From the IMG/VR virus record IMGVR_UViG_3300045988_093613: a DNA stretch of 35,228 nt, one strand, 5' to 3'. A program made the translations under genes and the position numbers. Below are positions 9,804 to 32,219 of the stretch, one piece after another. Numbering within the stretch: position 1 is the first letter of the stretch; the number at the start of each line of letters is the position of its first letter. The notes under the pieces are model-generated. The model did no database searches and was not told where the DNA came from. It saw only the letters and a list, made by a program, of their open reading frames with translations. Source of the stretch: a virus.

Positions 9804-10961
9804 ATGAAGAAAGGTCATCAGATGGCGAACGTCACCAGATACAATACCAGCAAAGGCGAGACACGATGGCGCGTGAGGTATCGCAAGCCCGACGGCACGC
9901 AAACCGACAAGCGTGGCTTCAAACGCAAATCCGATGCCGTGAACTGGGCGGCGGAGCATGTCACGATAGCCAAAGCGAGGGGAGCGTACATCGACCCGCA
10001 GGACGCGAAGACCACCGTGGGGGAGCTGGCCGGCGCGTGGTTGGATGCGAAGCGCACACGAGTCAAACCGAGCTACATGGACGACCTGGAGGACTCATGG
10101 CGCGTCTGGGTCAAGCCCGCATGGGGAGACGTGCCCATCGGCATGGTGACCAGAAACGATGTGCAGAAATGGGTTACTGACATAGCGTCGCAGCGCAGCG
10201 CCAGCGTCACATTGAGGGCATACGGCATCCTCGCCGGGATCCTCGACAACGCCGTGCGAGACGGCATGATCCACGCGAATCATGCGCGCGGGGTGGAGCT
10301 GCCGCGCAAGAAGACCAAAAGGCATGTGTACCTCACCGCGCCCCAGCTGTACTCGCTGGCCGGTGAATGCGGCTGGCGTCGCGACATCATCCTCACACTT
10401 GGACTGTGCGGCATGCGCTGGGGCGAGCTCGTGCCCCTGCGCGTGCGCGACGTCGACCTCGACCGGCATCGGATCATGGTTGACGTGAGCGCCCCCATGG
10501 TCGGCGGCAAGGTCACTCCGGGGGACACCAAGACCCACGAGGGACGTAGCATCATGTACCCGGCCGTCCTCGACCGGATCATGCACGACCGCTGCGAGGG
10601 GCGCAGACCGGACGACCTGCTCTTCGAGGCTCCCGGCCGTCCGGGCGTGTATCTCAAGGAGTTCGGCGCGGCGTCCAGCGGCGACGGATGGCTCGCGTCC
10701 GCGCTCCGGCGCGCCGACATCAGCGGGCACTTGACCCTGCATGATCTGCGGCACACGGCGGTGAGCCTCATGGTCAGCTCAGGAGCCAACGTCAAGGCCG
10801 TGCAAAGACAGATCGGGCACAAGAGCGCGGCGATGACGCTCGACACCTACGCGGATCTGTTCGAGGCTGATCTGGACAAGCTCGGCGAGCGCATGGGCGA
10901 GATGCTGCTGCGTGAGAGTGTGGGCAAAATGTGGGCAGACGATACGGCGGAGGCCGCGTAA
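9804..10961 (+). CDS. int: Tyrosine integrase (phage integrase family)
   Basis: The probable true start is ATG 9822 (GAAAGG 8 nt upstream; MANVTRYNTSKGETRWRVRY...). Catalytic signatures are ...CGMRWGELVPLRVRDV..., HDLRHTAVSL and GHKSAAMTLDTYADL. Confidence 0.9.
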   Translation: MKKGHQMANVTRYNTSKGETRWRVRYRKPDGTQTDKRGFKRKSDAVNWAAEHVTIAKARGAYIDPQDAKTTVGELAGAWLDAKRTRVKPSYMDDLEDSWRVWVKPAWGDVPIGMVTRNDVQKWVTDIASQRSASVTLRAYGILAGILDNAVRDGMIHANHARGVELPRKKTKRHVYLTAPQLYSLAGECGWRRDIILTLGLCGMRWGELVPLRVRDVDLDRHRIMVDVSAPMVGGKVTPGDTKTHEGRSIMYPAVLDRIMHDRCEGRRPDDLLFEAPGRPGVYLKEFGAASSGDGWLASALRRADISGHLTLHDLRHTAVSLMVSSGANVKAVQRQIGHKSAAMTLDTYADLFEADLDKLGERMGEMLLRESVGKMWADDTAEAA

Positions 10962-10996
10962 TCTGCACGGGAGTAGGGCTGTCGGGTTTCCCTTTT

Positions 10997-11023
10997 GCGG
11001 GTTCGAGTCCCGCCTCTGACGCA
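10997..11023 (+). other. attP core candidate: mimic of a tRNA 3' end (T-arm plus acceptor 3' strand)
   Basis: GCGGG-TTCGAGT-CCCGC-CTCTGAC-G-CA lies 36 nt after the int stop. No D arm or anticodon arm lies upstream, so this is not a full tRNA. Confidence 0.6.
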
Positions 11024-11032
11024 GATATGCAG

Positions 11033-11073
11033 AAGCGCCCCTCGGCTCCATGCATAGGAGTCGAGGGGCGCTT
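11033..11073. terminator. Hairpin between the convergent int and endolysin genes
   Basis: 12-bp stem AAGCGCCCCTCG / CGAGGGGCGCTT with a 17-nt loop, followed by GTGTTTA on the plus strand. Confidence 0.6.
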
Positions 11074-11077
11074 GTGT

Positions 11078-11911: not shown

Positions 11912-12320
11912 AGGACACCTCCTCGATGGGTGCCACGTCAGCGGTCGCGTCCGCTCCCCTGGAGTCGGACACCGCGTAGGCCGCCTGAGCTGTCCCGGTC
12001 GTGGCGTCGGTGTCGGTGGCGATGATGTTGGCTTTGATCGCGTTGGTGAGCTGCTGTCCCTGCACGGCGGCACCGGTCAGGTTGTTGTTGCGCCACCACG
12101 CGTACACGGATGCGATGACGGCGATGACGCCGGTGATCGCCGTGCTCACCTGATCGGTGGTGAACGGGAGCTGGCTGATGCCGGCGATGCTCAGGCCGGT
12201 CTGCGCGACGCTGAATAATTGGACGATGAGCAGGATGATCGCCTTGGTGCGTTCCACGGTCAGGCCGGGAATCGCCGGGCCGGTGGCCTTGTGGTCGGCC
12301 ACGCCGGTGGTGTTTGCCAT
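11895..12320 (-). CDS. Holin (LL-H/phi-LC3-like)
   Basis: Two TM helices followed by ...SVYAWWRNNNLTGAA.... Lies immediately upstream of the endolysin gene and overlaps it. Confidence 0.7.
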   Translation of the reverse strand: MANTTGVADHKATGPAIPGLTVERTKAIILLIVQLFSVAQTGLSIAGISQLPFTTDQVSTAITGVIAVIASVYAWWRNNNLTGAAVQGQQLTNAIKANIIATDTDATTGTAQAAYAVSDSRGADATADVAPIEEVSYGDGE

Positions 12321-12449
12321 AATGGTTCTCCTTACAAAAGAAGCCCCACGGGTGTGGGACTTAGGTCAGTCGGTTTTATAGAGGCGGACGCTCAGATGGG
12401 CGTCCGCGTAGGTGACGCCGAACATCGTGGCCGGCATCGGAAGCCACCG

Positions 12450-12554
12450 TCACAGGTGCTCCCGCACGGTAACGGGCGCATCAACCGACTGGGGGCCAGC
12501 CCGGATGGTCAATGTGGCCGTGCCGGGCTTGACGCCGTTGATGGTGATGCTCAT
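12450..12554 (-). CDS. Micro-ORF (34 aa) resembling the end of a Big_2 Ig-like domain; possible cassette relic
   Basis: ATGA-coupled to the upstream gene. MSITINGVKPGTATLTIRAGPQSVDAPVTVREHL*. The TLTIRAG segment resembles FTVIRAG of the orphan cassette at 13322-13414. Confidence 0.35.
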   Translation of the reverse strand: MSITINGVKPGTATLTIRAGPQSVDAPVTVREHL

Positions 12555-12958
12555 GATGGCTTTCCTCCCAGCCGGGGCGCAATGGGCGCATTCTGGATAT
12601 CGTTGTTGACCTGGGTGCCGTGGCCGTTGCCGCCCAATCCGTGATAGGCGTCGTAGACACGTTGGGCGCGGAGTTTGAAGTCATTGTCGGCGACGCCGTG
12701 GTGGTCGTGCACCATCGTGTCCTGCTGCTGTTCGAGCTTGCACAGCAGAAGCGTGCGCAGCGCCTCGTCTACGAGTTTTTCGTGTTCGCAGCCGCGCCTC
12801 ATGTCGGCCATTAGCTGCTCATGCTCCGACCTTCGGGTCTCCTCGTCGGCGATCTGCGAGCGCAGGTTTTTGAGTTGGTGCCAGAGGCCGGCGGCTATGG
12901 CGCTGATGGCGGCGATGAGGAGGCCGGCGACGACGCTGGTGATGATGTCGTCAGCCAT
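12551..12958 (-). CDS. N-terminally membrane-anchored coiled-coil protein (135 aa), lysis-module associated
   Basis: MADDIITSVVAGLLIAAISAIAAGLW (TM helix), then a charged helix, then ...RVYDAYHGLGGNGHGT... Confidence 0.55.
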   Translation of the reverse strand: MADDIITSVVAGLLIAAISAIAAGLWHQLKNLRSQIADEETRRSEHEQLMADMRRGCEHEKLVDEALRTLLLCKLEQQQDTMVHDHHGVADNDFKLRAQRVYDAYHGLGGNGHGTQVNNDIQNAPIAPRLGGKPS

Positions 12959-13054
12959 GTGGCTCCTCTCTGACGGGATGTCGCATTGGCGATCCTCTCT
13001 GTGTGTGGTGGTGGAATCCCACGGTGCGTTGGTATTGTTTAATACGGGTGGTCG

Positions 13055-13314
13055 GTGGCGGCGAACACCAAAGGCAGGCCGATTTCGTCGAGCATGCCCG
13101 GCAGTTCGCCGTCCGCGTATCCGCAGACGCTCCGCGCAACCTACGCCACACGTTCGGCACGTTGGCTATCAAGGCCGGAACCGACATCAGCGTGGTCGCG
13201 CGACAGCTCGGACACTCCGACATCCAAACCACCGCACGGTATTACCTCAAGCCCGATCTGAGCGTCCTCAAGGACATGCAGAAGGCATGGCAGAAACTCA
13301 TATTGACCTGCTGA
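13055..13314 (+). pseudogene. Truncated tyrosine recombinase: only the C-terminal box II/Tyr region remains (Rin/Rci-like invertase relic?)
   Basis: Track ORF 13003..13314 ends ...FAVRVSADAPRNLRHTFGTLAIKAGTDISVVARQLGHSDIQTTARYYLKPDL.... No N-terminal catalytic Arg/Lys region exists upstream, because that space is taken by a minus-strand gene. A possible frameshifted NTKGRP remnant lies at about 13060. Confidence 0.7.
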
Positions 13315-13320
13315 ATAGCT

Positions 13321-13332
13321 TTCCGTAACCCT
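13321..13332. repeat. Left arm of a 12-bp perfect inverted repeat (TTCCGTAACCCT)
   Basis: The exact reverse complement occurs at 13740-13751. This arm lies 6 nt after the recombinase-remnant stop. Confidence 0.8.
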
Positions 13333-13414
13333 GTACAATGCGAAGGGCTTCACGGTCATCCGCGCCGGCAGCAATCAGGGTTGTGTAGGCTCGCTCTGCT
13401 ATCCGGTCGTCTAA
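13322..13414 (+). other. Orphan start-less C-terminal cassette, in frame with the inverted-repeat core
   Basis: SVTLYNAKGFTVIRAGSNQGCVGSLCYPVV*. The frame is closed by TAG 13316-13318 just upstream. About 21 of 27 codons have G/C at the third position. Its TAA (13412-13414) abuts the stop (13415-13417) of the convergent tail-fibre gene. Confidence 0.55.
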
Positions 13415-14251
13415 TCAACGATCAAGCGGTACCGTGATGCAGCCCTCGACCCAACCGCCTTTGCCGAGCGTCATCTTCGCGGCCGAGCGAAGGCTGATCT
13501 CGTTGCCAGCGGTCTGCACCTCGACGCCATGAAGCCCCACGCTCGAATTGGACACCGTGGCGCAATGCACCTCGAACGCGGCCTCCAATCCAGTCGGAAG
13601 CCTGAAAAGCTTGGACGTATCCCATATCCTCGGGGCAGTCCAGTCCGTGTTGACTCGAATGGCATGAAACGCGACGATCAACATCCCGCCGACAAACGCG
13701 GTGCGATAATCCACGTCCCAGTTAGCGTTTGGTTTCGTGAGGGTTACGGAATCACACAGTTTCGACATGGGAGGCAGCTGTTTGATGAGCATGACCGGCG
13801 TGCCGGGCGTGATCCCGCTGATCGGGATGCGGGCGATCGGGATCCACGCCGTGTCGGAGGCCGAGTGGATGCTGCCCGACGGGACGGTCGGGTCGGCGGC
13901 CGTACCGGTGTTTGGCGTGCCTTTGAGCACGGCGATGGCGGCGGTCTCGATGTTCTGGCTGTTCCGTGTGTATTTGAGGCAGACGAGGTCGTTGCGGTTC
14001 TGGCCGCTCATGCCGCTTTCGATGGTCGCGGTCTCGGCCTCGGTGACGCGCGCGTATCGTCCTTCGACCACGAGGTTGAGGACGGGGATCAGCGCGTGAT
14101 TCGCATCCTGCATGGTCACCGTGGGGAAAGTGCCGTCGCTGCCCTGCAGCAGGTAGCTGCCGTTGCCGATGACCCCGGCCTGCATGGCGCCCATGTCGCC
14201 GCTGGTGATGTGCGGTGTGCCGCCCTTGCCTGTGATGAGCGTGGTGGTCAT
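13415..14251 (-). CDS. Tail fibre / receptor-binding protein candidate (278 aa)
   Basis: Last structural gene before the lysis module. It contains the right inverted-repeat arm in frame (..LCDSVTLTKP..). Confidence 0.6.
   Translation of the reverse strand: MTTTLITGKGGTPHITSGDMGAMQAGVIGNGSYLLQGSDGTFPTVTMQDANHALIPVLNLVVEGRYARVTEAETATIESGMSGQNRNDLVCLKYTRNSQNIETAAIAVLKGTPNTGTAADPTVPSGSIHSASDTAWIPIARIPISGITPGTPVMLIKQLPPMSKLCDSVTLTKPNANWDVDYRTAFVGGMLIVAFHAIRVNTDWTAPRIWDTSKLFRLPTGLEAAFEVHCATVSNSSVGLHGVEVQTAGNEISLRSAAKMTLGKGGWVEGCITVPLDR
13740..13751. repeat. Right arm of the 12-bp inverted repeat (AGGGTTACGGAA), inside the tail-fibre gene
   Basis: Reverse complement of 13321-13332. Codon phase is T|TCC|GTA|ACC|CT on the coding strand. 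Confidence 0.8.
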
Positions 14252-32143: not shown

Positions 32144-32219
32144 TGGCATACGCGGTTGGCTTCGATCCAACGACCTGCGGTTTTGGAGACCGCTGCTCTA
32201 CCGGCTGAGCTACGCGCAT
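32144..32219 (-). tRNA. tRNA-Trp: tRNA-Trp (anticodon CCA), CCA end encoded
   Basis: ATGCGCG-TA-GCTC-AGCCGGTA-GAGC-A-GCGGT-CTCCAAA-ACCGC-AGGTC-GTTGG-ATCGAAG-CCAAC-CGCGTAT-G-CCA. All four stems pair. A1-U72 and G73 are as in bacterial tRNA-Trp. The T-loop begins with A instead of T. Confidence 0.85.

Follow-up and report, generated by a model that had tools for sequence, protein, structure and literature searches.

Does the receptor-binding protein (RBP) gene of a Bifidobacterium bifidum prophage still exchange its head, or is it the relic of a switch? The question is raised by IMG/VR virus record IMGVR_UViG_3300045988_093613, a stretch of 35,228 nucleotides (hereafter the window, always meaning this whole stretch), which is a B. 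bifidum prophage and in which one arm of a 12-bp inverted repeat lies inside the RBP gene and the other beside the end of a truncated tyrosine recombinase gene, rin. A sequence-only reading of the window, made by a model without database searches, had described here a shufflon-like invertible RBP C-terminus beside a decayed tyrosine recombinase, a description supported below by the identity of the arms with the rix crossover site of Rin shufflons and by breaks of homology at both arms. In our analysis the locus is likely to be a decayed two-cassette Rin shufflon which has lost its own rin and whose orphan pair of rix sites is still occasionally inverted by a recombinase provided in trans. Sequence comparison establishes the identity of the sites, the homology of the cassettes, the truncation of rin, the deletion in the silent cassette and the existence of both orientations in nature; from the same comparison, inversion at both arms would have followed the truncation of rin and the loss within the silent cassette, probably more than once.

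The features of the locus, in window coordinates, are:

13132-13314, plus strand: rin remnant, codons 231-290 and stop (13312-13314) of a 290-aa Rin, by alignment with PMBT6 Rin
13316-13320, plus strand: TAGCT flank outside the silent-cassette rix, whose in-frame TAG (13316-13318) shuts the dRvA frame upstream
13321-13332, plus strand: left arm of the inverted repeat, the rin-side rix, TTCCGTAACCCT, with its 11-bp core at 13321-13331
13322-13414, plus strand: dRvA, what is left of an RvA-type head cassette, silent and without a start codon, encoding SVT and 27 aa before its TAA
13333-13739, no strand: invertible segment between the arms, holding dRvA and RvX tail to tail
13415-13739, minus strand: RvX, the expressed variable head, 108 aa and stop, continuous with the RBP open reading frame (ORF)
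13415-14251, minus strand: RBP ORF of 278 aa, 170 aa through DSVT plus 108 aa
13740-13751, minus strand: right arm of the inverted repeat, the rix within the RBP gene, perfect reverse complement of TTCCGTAACCCT, core 13741-13751
13752-14251, minus strand: Rc, the constant shoulder, RBP aa 1-166, by homology to Rc of relatives

The arms of the inverted repeat are rix sites

The repeat is real and perfect over 12 bp, as had been read from the letters alone, with arms 407 nt apart and extendable on neither side. Taken by itself, however, it is not significant, the window holding five perfect 12-mer inverted repeats with a loop of at most 1000 nt where first-order Markov simulations with its dinucleotide transitions give an expectation of 5.0. 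Hence, the weight of the arms comes from their identity to a conserved recombination site and not from the repeat alone. A Rin shufflon in Bifidobacterium prophages, named in the sequence-only reading, is indeed published, with an 11-bp rix, TTCCCTAACCC (PMC6109161). The core of the window arms, TTCCGTAACCC, is one base off this site and occurs in the window at the two arms only (13321-13331, plus strand; 13741-13751, minus strand). Among 168 rix sites at cassette boundaries in 78 related loci, TTCCGTAACCC accounts for 155/168 and the published variant TTCCCTAACCC for 13/168; the former is present in three copies in PMBT6, beside an intact 290-aa rin, in seven in Siphoviridae sp. ctl617 and in four in a Collinsella metagenome-assembled genome, and the rix of the window arms is identical in dozens of metagenomic relatives. 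The homology between the window and PMBT6 (96-97%) covers 13130-13332, breaks at the end of the left arm and restarts at 13740, the start of the right arm. As in Rin shufflons, therefore, rix is found both inside the RBP gene and upstream of a cassette.

Two relatives carry the cassettes of the window the other way round. In B. erythrocebi DSM 109960 (L004) and B. pongonis 64T4 (L005) the order is rin, rix, RvX (silent), RvA (full, fused to Rc), rix and Rc, which corresponds to the two cassettes of the window in the opposite arrangement, with Rc collinear in direct orientation (97.5%) and the inter-rix segment collinear in reverse (90.6-96%). The rin gene is intact in L004 (287 aa) and apparently frameshifted near position 5240 in L005. 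The intact recombinase and longer cassettes for which a search of relatives had been proposed are thus present at the same site, namely the full-length rin of L004 and the full RvA.

Concerning the flanks of the sites, the Rc-side rix is preceded by GGGA in 50/52 Rc sites of the related loci. At window position 13754, three bases outside the Rc-side rix (position -3), G is replaced by T, which turns codon 166 from TGG to TGT (W166C) and the flank into GTGA; the Trp is at least 90% conserved, and Cys is found in the sublineage of the window. Most of the 116 non-Rc rix sites of the related loci follow a TAG(C/T)T, which places an in-frame stop just upstream of silent cassettes. In a clade of loci whose Rin is 53% identical to that of PMBT6, the rin-proximal rix carries the Rc-type GGGA flank, which in L004 gives a 15-bp inverted repeat.

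Decay of the alternative cassette and of rin

The dRvA frame opens from the left arm in the same phase as the right arm, reads SVT-LYNAKGFTVIRAGSNQGCVGSLCYPVV* and ends at 13414, tail to tail with the RBP stop; the start-less plus-strand ORF closed by the TAG at 13316-13318, as first noticed in the sequence alone, is therefore confirmed in all its parts, and its gene-like third-position G/C was recounted at 23/30 codons (about 21 of 27 in the earlier count). Comparison with the RvA of B. erythrocebi, B. pongonis and PMBT6, in all three of which RvA is the expressed cassette, shows that dRvA is this cassette minus an in-frame stretch of 201 nt (67 codons) between CCGGCA and CGGGCA. The surveyed loci contain at least 13 cassette families, and their 158 complete cassettes measure 80-122 aa except for dRvA, present in the window and nine related loci, and one other. 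All ten copies of the dRvA stub adjoin a truncated rin, and none of about 30 loci with an intact rin has it. Where a Rin shufflon holds three to five full-length variable (Rv) cassettes, the window is left with one, RvX, and the 27-aa remnant.

The truncated rin ends six nt before the left arm, just where a recombinase remnant had been located by the sequence-only reading. Relatives have at the same position an intact rin of 287-290 aa, of which aa 231-290 of 290 are left in the window. The remnant is 100% identical in amino acids to positions 231-290 of PMBT6 Rin, with eight synonymous and no non-synonymous codon differences, which indicates that most of the divergence was built up under purifying selection, presumably before the truncation. 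It retains the LRHTF, GHS and RYY motifs, has lost the core-binding domain at the N-terminus together with about three quarters of the catalytic domain, and matches Pfam PF00589 at profile positions 128-166 of 172 only; the corresponding ORF is labelled at NCBI 'tyrosine-type recombinase/integrase, partial [Bifidobacterium bifidum]'. With rin cut to its last 60 codons, the element cannot invert itself.

Both orientations exist in nature

Copies of the locus in the flipped state were found on two metagenome contigs, 99-100% identical to window-type loci. The first, L096 (ENA ERZ1742843, a 31-kb contig), reads Rc, rix and dRvA, which together form a 197-aa RBP, followed by a silent RvX, rix and a 94-aa rin remnant. 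With respect to the window its flanks are direct, 98.3% and 98.7% identical and down to 13022, and the 431-bp segment 13321-13751 is inverted at 98.8%; in comparison with L060 and L038, both unflipped, flank identity is 99.2-99.6% over 4.5 kb and 2.6-3.0 kb, and the inverted part is again these 431 bp only. The second, L097 (Logan ERR12526704), contains the inverted 431-bp segment, arms included, 100% identical to that of the unflipped L034 and differing from that of the window at one position; on its rin side the identity is 100% across 288 bp. Both share the rin truncation and the dRvA deletion of the window, and they belong to different single-nucleotide polymorphism (SNP) haplotypes. As the flipped copies have the same truncated rin and the same deletion, inversion postdates the decay, and the near-identity of the L097 segment to L034 and of the L096 flanks to L060 and L038 points to a very recent change confined between the arms. 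Since the repeat is only 12 bp long, mis-assembly is an unlikely origin of L096 and L097.

The 15-billion-protein collection also contains flipped 197-aa products built on Rc variants of sister loci, P0294 on five contigs and P0284 on one, and the Rc-dRvA junction of the flipped form would read CTGTG[G/T]GATTCCGTAACCCTGTACAATGC. The 197-aa product had been hidden from the list of RBP homologues, where it is clustered under a 99-aa representative. All flipped copies found carry the W166 (GGGA) flank: among the listed cluster members, six W166 contigs are flipped against 52 unflipped and none of the C166 contigs against 178 (Fisher's exact p = 2e-4, with contig sampling that is neither independent nor complete). 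The negative orientation tests were tied to the C166 sublineage of the window and are hence silent on its W166 sisters. The rin-side flipped junction, AATAGCTTTCCGTAACCCTCACGAAACC, has no match in genome_contigs and none in viral_contigs, and the flipped orientation is found in 0/8 window-type IMG/VR loci. It should be noted that the Fic-domain gene neighbouring the locus on a flipped contig is 75-90% identical across many Bifidobacterium species.

An exchangeable head on a constant shoulder

Within the 278-aa minus-strand ORF the right arm has the codon phase originally assigned to it: it is read as ..KLCDSVTLTKPN.. (..KLCDSVTLT..) and encodes the (D)SVT of the Rc/Rv junction. This DSVT is kept in the RBP homologues whose sequences were read, and the C-termini beyond it are diverse. 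Rc is 96-97% identical in amino acids to its counterparts in B. erythrocebi, B. pongonis and B. merycicum and comparably so to the Rc of PMBT6; an Rc search of species-representative genomes gave three loci only, and PHROG 9994 and 13141 match RBP aa 1-173 only. RvX, in turn, resembles the cassette that is silent and nearest to rin in L004 and L005 (82-84% amino acid identity), and its family provides the expressed head in B. adolescentis-type phages with an intact rin and 2-5 rix sites. The exact RBP of the window is WP_116868266.1 of B. bifidum, which the collection indexes in 341 blocks and which is seen on at least 160 contigs. Aberrant short RBP C-termini also occur elsewhere, as in P0075 (205 aa) and P0119 (168 aa).

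A sequence-only search of the PDB and a Pfam search gave no match for the RBP. An AlphaFold2 (AF2) model built with 64 homologues has a mean predicted local distance difference test score (pLDDT) of 84, with a dip in confidence at residues 161-170, the site of DSVT. Foldseek matches this model to the RBP of lactococcal phage p2 (2bsd, E 7.8e-6) and to the TP901-1 baseplate chain (4v96, TM-score, TMt, 0.41), and its C-terminal part forms a beta-sandwich head similar to the bIL170 head domain (2fsd, TMt 0.69). The architecture is hence that of Rin shufflon RBPs, a constant N-terminus and an exchangeable C-terminus joined at rix, with the predicted likeness to lactococcal RBPs. The model matches together with the position of the junction suggest that the switch would swap a receptor-binding head on a constant shoulder.

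Shuffling in relatives and a probable match of site and enzyme

Among relatives, the order of the silent cassettes varies between loci that encode an identical Rc-RvX protein beside an intact 290-aa rin, as would be expected, judging from sequence, of active shuffling. Of the non-window-type contigs in IMG/VR, 16/55 stop 0-110 nt past the Rc rix (L051, L052, L054, L055, L057, L061, L066, L073-L075, L078-L082 and L085), and 0/8 window-type contigs do so; such ends look like assembly breaking at a heterogeneous, actively shuffled junction. Another decayed state is seen in L025 (B. adolescentis GCA_039839955.1), with an intact rin and the Rc rix alone left.

The two rix variants are distributed by recombinase. 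The loci with the published variant TTCCCTAACCC (L049, L070, L082, L084 and L086) use that variant only, have an Rc 94-95% identical to that of the window and, where rin is on the contig (L070, L084, L086), encode a Rin about 57% identical to PMBT6 Rin. In the other surveyed loci (L001, L003-L006, L023-L095), those with a Rin 53% or 79-100% identical to that of PMBT6 use TTCCGTAACCC only. This distribution suggests that rix variant and Rin clade co-evolve, the site being matched to the enzyme.

A mosaic junction at the edge of rin

The loss of most of rin can be followed to a junction on its left side, where two further features are found:

12951-13028, minus strand: final 24 codons of a Bbif-1 BBP_0922-type gene with its stop, forming the left border of the junction at which most of rin was lost
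13029-13131, no strand: junction DNA accompanying the truncated rin; the part from about 13078 on may prolong the rin frame in strongly diverged form

Over 12000-13028 the window shares 98.6% identity with the lysis module of the B. bifidum phage Bbif-1 (L002 923-1951), with which homology ends at 13028, and the C-terminal peptide RTVGFHHHTQRGSPMRHP(V/I)REEPHG* is common to the window and the Bbif-1 BBP_0922-type gene. The Bbif-1-type lysis module to the left of 13028 thus identifies the rin truncation as a mosaic junction. Between this point and the secure remnant, 13029-13131 has no blastn or blastx match to Rin genes; a Rin hidden Markov model (HMM) reaches weakly back to about 13078 (HMM position 213), with nothing confident further upstream. 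The extent first given to the recombinase remnant has consequently to be narrowed: it is a C-terminal remnant, as had been said, with secure homology from 13132 only. The 13029-13131 stretch is kept in all window-type loci, down to 13007-13032, beyond which at least three different left-hand contexts are found. At window 13007-13032 and its equivalents in L033, L037, L060 and L096 the left-hand (lysis) modules diverge within about 25 bp, a recurrent module-exchange boundary; in L037, L060 and L096 a terminator-like hairpin followed by a new gene start is located there.

Proposed mechanism

In the intact system of bifidobacterial siphophage prophages, a XerD-like tyrosine recombinase, Rin (about 290 aa, without arm-binding domain), encoded beside the RBP gene, recombines short asymmetric rix sites. 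One of these marks, within the RBP gene, the border of Rc (about 166 aa plus the rix-encoded DSVT) with the head, and the remaining ones sit before promoter-less, start-less Rv head cassettes. Inversion between oppositely oriented rix then places a new head on Rc, and receptor specificity changes. The window is in the state Rc-RvX with the full 278-aa RBP, the sole alternative cassette being dRvA without its 67 internal codons. Flipping would yield a headless 197-aa RBP consisting of the shoulder only, presumably non-binding, which can be seen as the OFF state for adsorption; the remnant locus would thus behave as an ON/OFF element rather than as a host-range switch.

As the cis recombinase is dead, we infer that inversion needs an enzyme in trans, which would most likely be the Rin of a co-resident or superinfecting bifidophage with the same rix core. 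Candidate enzymes are offered by the two Rin clades (53% and 79-100% identity to PMBT6 Rin) which use the core of the window. Concerning the absence of flipped copies from the C166 sublineage, it suggests that this sublineage may be locked: the W166C change, G to T at -3 of the Rc-side rix flank, may reduce recombination and leave the sublineage of the window effectively fixed. The more ambitious proposal, that the orphan rix pair works as a cross-phage, recombinase-less ON/OFF switch of the RBP with Rin supplied in trans and W166C as its locking mutation, is put forward as a possibility that we ourselves find somewhat doubtful.

Alternative explanations

Several points weigh against a decayed shufflon that is still inverted in trans. 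Flipped copies are rare: the cluster members listed include about six flipped contigs and at least 230 unflipped ones. Four predicted flipped C166 products, built on the window's own Rc and on three variants, are absent from the 15-billion-protein collection, and an orientation-blind junction scan gave two viral and four metagenome matches, 6/6 of them unflipped, with a degenerate pattern that carried the C166 flank and was therefore blind to W166 flipped copies. For the hosts of the flipped contigs no Rin that could act in trans was identified, nor was any intact Rin among the name-bearing matches labelled B. bifidum. The evidence for inversion at rix (L004/L005 and L096/L097) is comparative only, between contigs, and homologous reassortment could in principle bring together a truncated rin and a segment flipped beforehand. 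This last point is the core of the explanation by which the locus is a pure fossil, locked since the truncation of rin, L096 and L097 having arisen by homologous recombination between related prophages with no later inversion. Mosaicism is indeed high, the truncated rin being found with at least three left-hand modules and the haplotype table showing reshuffled SNP blocks, and all copies of the window's own sublineage are unflipped. Such a history nevertheless needs a donor with both an intact rin and dRvA, or a dRvA segment flipped before the truncation, and none was seen; the association of dRvA with truncated rin (10/10, against 0 of about 30 intact-rin loci) speaks against it, as does the restriction of the recent change to the interval between the arms, given the L097 segment 100% identical to L034 and the L096 flanks near-identical to L060 and L038. 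We consider this explanation unlikely. Between the locked fossil and the switch served in trans that the sequence-only reading had left side by side, L096 and L097 hence favour inversion after decay, and the phage integrase named there as an example of the trans enzyme is without support.

Inversion without any recombinase, by rare template switching or illegitimate recombination at the 12-bp repeats, would agree with the rarity of flipped copies and with the fact that no trans recombinase was identified. However, 12 bp is far less homology than recombination normally requires, the four other perfect 12-bp inverted repeats of the window have no known inversion, the breakpoints coincide with a site that recombines in relatives, and the flips occurred on two haplotypes, so that we give this explanation very little credence. 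Still more improbable is inversion by the prophage's own integrase or by a host Xer recombinase. The integrase (385 aa, 9804-10961) is the only intact tyrosine recombinase in the window; on the other hand, it is a lambda-Int-type enzyme with an arm-binding domain, 24% identical to Rin, the rix 11-mer is found in the window at the two arms only and hence does not belong to an att-like site, many window-type loci have no integrase beside the lysis genes, and each rix variant is paired with one Rin type in the surveyed loci, which indicates an enzyme-specific site. That the repeat is a functionless chance match, in line with the five observed against 5.0 expected, is ruled out for practical purposes by the rix-core identity, the homology breaks at both arms and the inverted arrangement in relatives and near-identical copies.

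Surroundings of the integrase gene

Beside the integrase gene, window 10962-11077 is without about 770 bp (an HTH_3 gene and two small ORFs) that are found between lysin and integrase in L013/L014 (9233-10005). In L007-L012 host genes (Peptidase_M48, Pyr_redox_2) come after the same end of the prophage, and no integrase is found at this place. The only tRNA of the window is a tRNA-Trp (CCA) at 32144-32219 on the minus strand, at a great distance from the integrase; around 9804-10961 neither a tRNA-Met nor a dnaJ2-type attachment context was seen.

Significance

Bifidobacterium is an important genus of the infant gut, and, to our knowledge, no phage host-range switches other than Rin shufflons have been described that use a tyrosine recombinase. 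The locus shows a route by which such a switch decays, its recombinase cut at a module junction and its alternative cassette gutted, and this decayed form is common in public data. Orphan recombination sites may moreover remain substrates for the recombinases of other phages. We know of no earlier case of trans action on orphan sites with a traceable origin. The idea of such action was raised in the 2018 paper (PMC6109161). If it is true here, co-resident prophages could toggle each other's adsorption apparatus off and on, and the natural pair of GGGA and GTGA flanks would be a means to map Rin recognition. All considered, the locus would be a decayed and trans-dependent variant of the already known Rin system.

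Comparison with known systems

The Rin shufflon was described in dnaJ2-integrated prophages of B. breve and B. longum, Bb423phi1, Bl30698phi1 and Bl157phi1 (Mavrich et al. 2018, PMC6109161), and has also been reported in Eggerthella lenta prophages (PMC8778435). Its published RBP consists of an Rc of 168 aa and an Rv of 95-100 aa, with likeness to the 1358 RBP for Rc and to the TP901-1 RBP for Rv, and the tyrosine recombinase gene rin adjoins (PMC6109161). The window has the same layout, an Rc of about 168 aa and a head of about 95-110 aa, with crossover at the Rc/Rv junction and upstream of start-less cassettes, an adjoining gene of the tyrosine recombinase family and an 11-bp site one base apart. 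It differs in having one intact cassette and a 27-aa stub instead of three to five cassettes, in a rin of 60 codons, in its host, B. bifidum, and in its rix, TTCCGTAACCC, which goes with the 53% and 79-100% Rin clades whereas the published variant goes with the 57% clade. The locus belongs by descent to the Rin shufflon family, although two of the defining features, an intact rin and several cassettes, have been lost.

Beyond this family, the serine-invertase systems Gin/G of Mu, Cin/C of P1 and Min of p15B likewise swap the receptor-binding C-terminus of a tail-fibre protein by inversion, and the Mu G segment has the same two-cassette, tail-to-tail geometry. They employ serine invertases with an enhancer and Fis, in contrast to the tyrosine recombinase of the window, to which they have no sequence relationship; membership in this group is ruled out, since the adjacent remnant is a PF00589 tyrosine recombinase. 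The shufflon of R64 and other IncI plasmids (Rci, 19-bp sfx sites, PilV tips from exchanged pilV 3' ends) shares with the window a tyrosine recombinase, short asymmetric sites with one conserved side and the exchange of an adhesin C-terminus, but its target is a conjugative-pilus adhesin and its recombinase is intact, the likeness being by analogy only. Among the Mpi and Tsr15-type tyrosine invertases of Bacteroides fragilis, one enzyme serves several distant regions, which provides a precedent for service in trans, whereas the inverted elements are host-chromosome promoters and not coding sequence inside a phage gene. The RBPs of the lactococcal siphophages p2, bIL170 and TP901-1 share the predicted shoulder and head fold with its swappable head, their heads being exchanged by evolution or engineering and not by programmed inversion.

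The nearest published analogue of the present state of the window, compared by its published 8-mer only, is the recombinase-less locus of the tRNA-Met-integrated B. breve prophages 689b-1 and Bb423phi2, in which about 500 bp invert at CAGGGTTA with no flanking recombinase and for which the authors proposed an invertase acting in trans (PMC6109161). This 8-mer is contained in the reverse complement of the left arm of the window, CAGGGTTACGGAA, and the right arm reads GAGGGTTA. In contrast to that locus, the orphan site pair of the window has a traceable origin, a decayed Rin shufflon with the remnant of its recombinase still in place.

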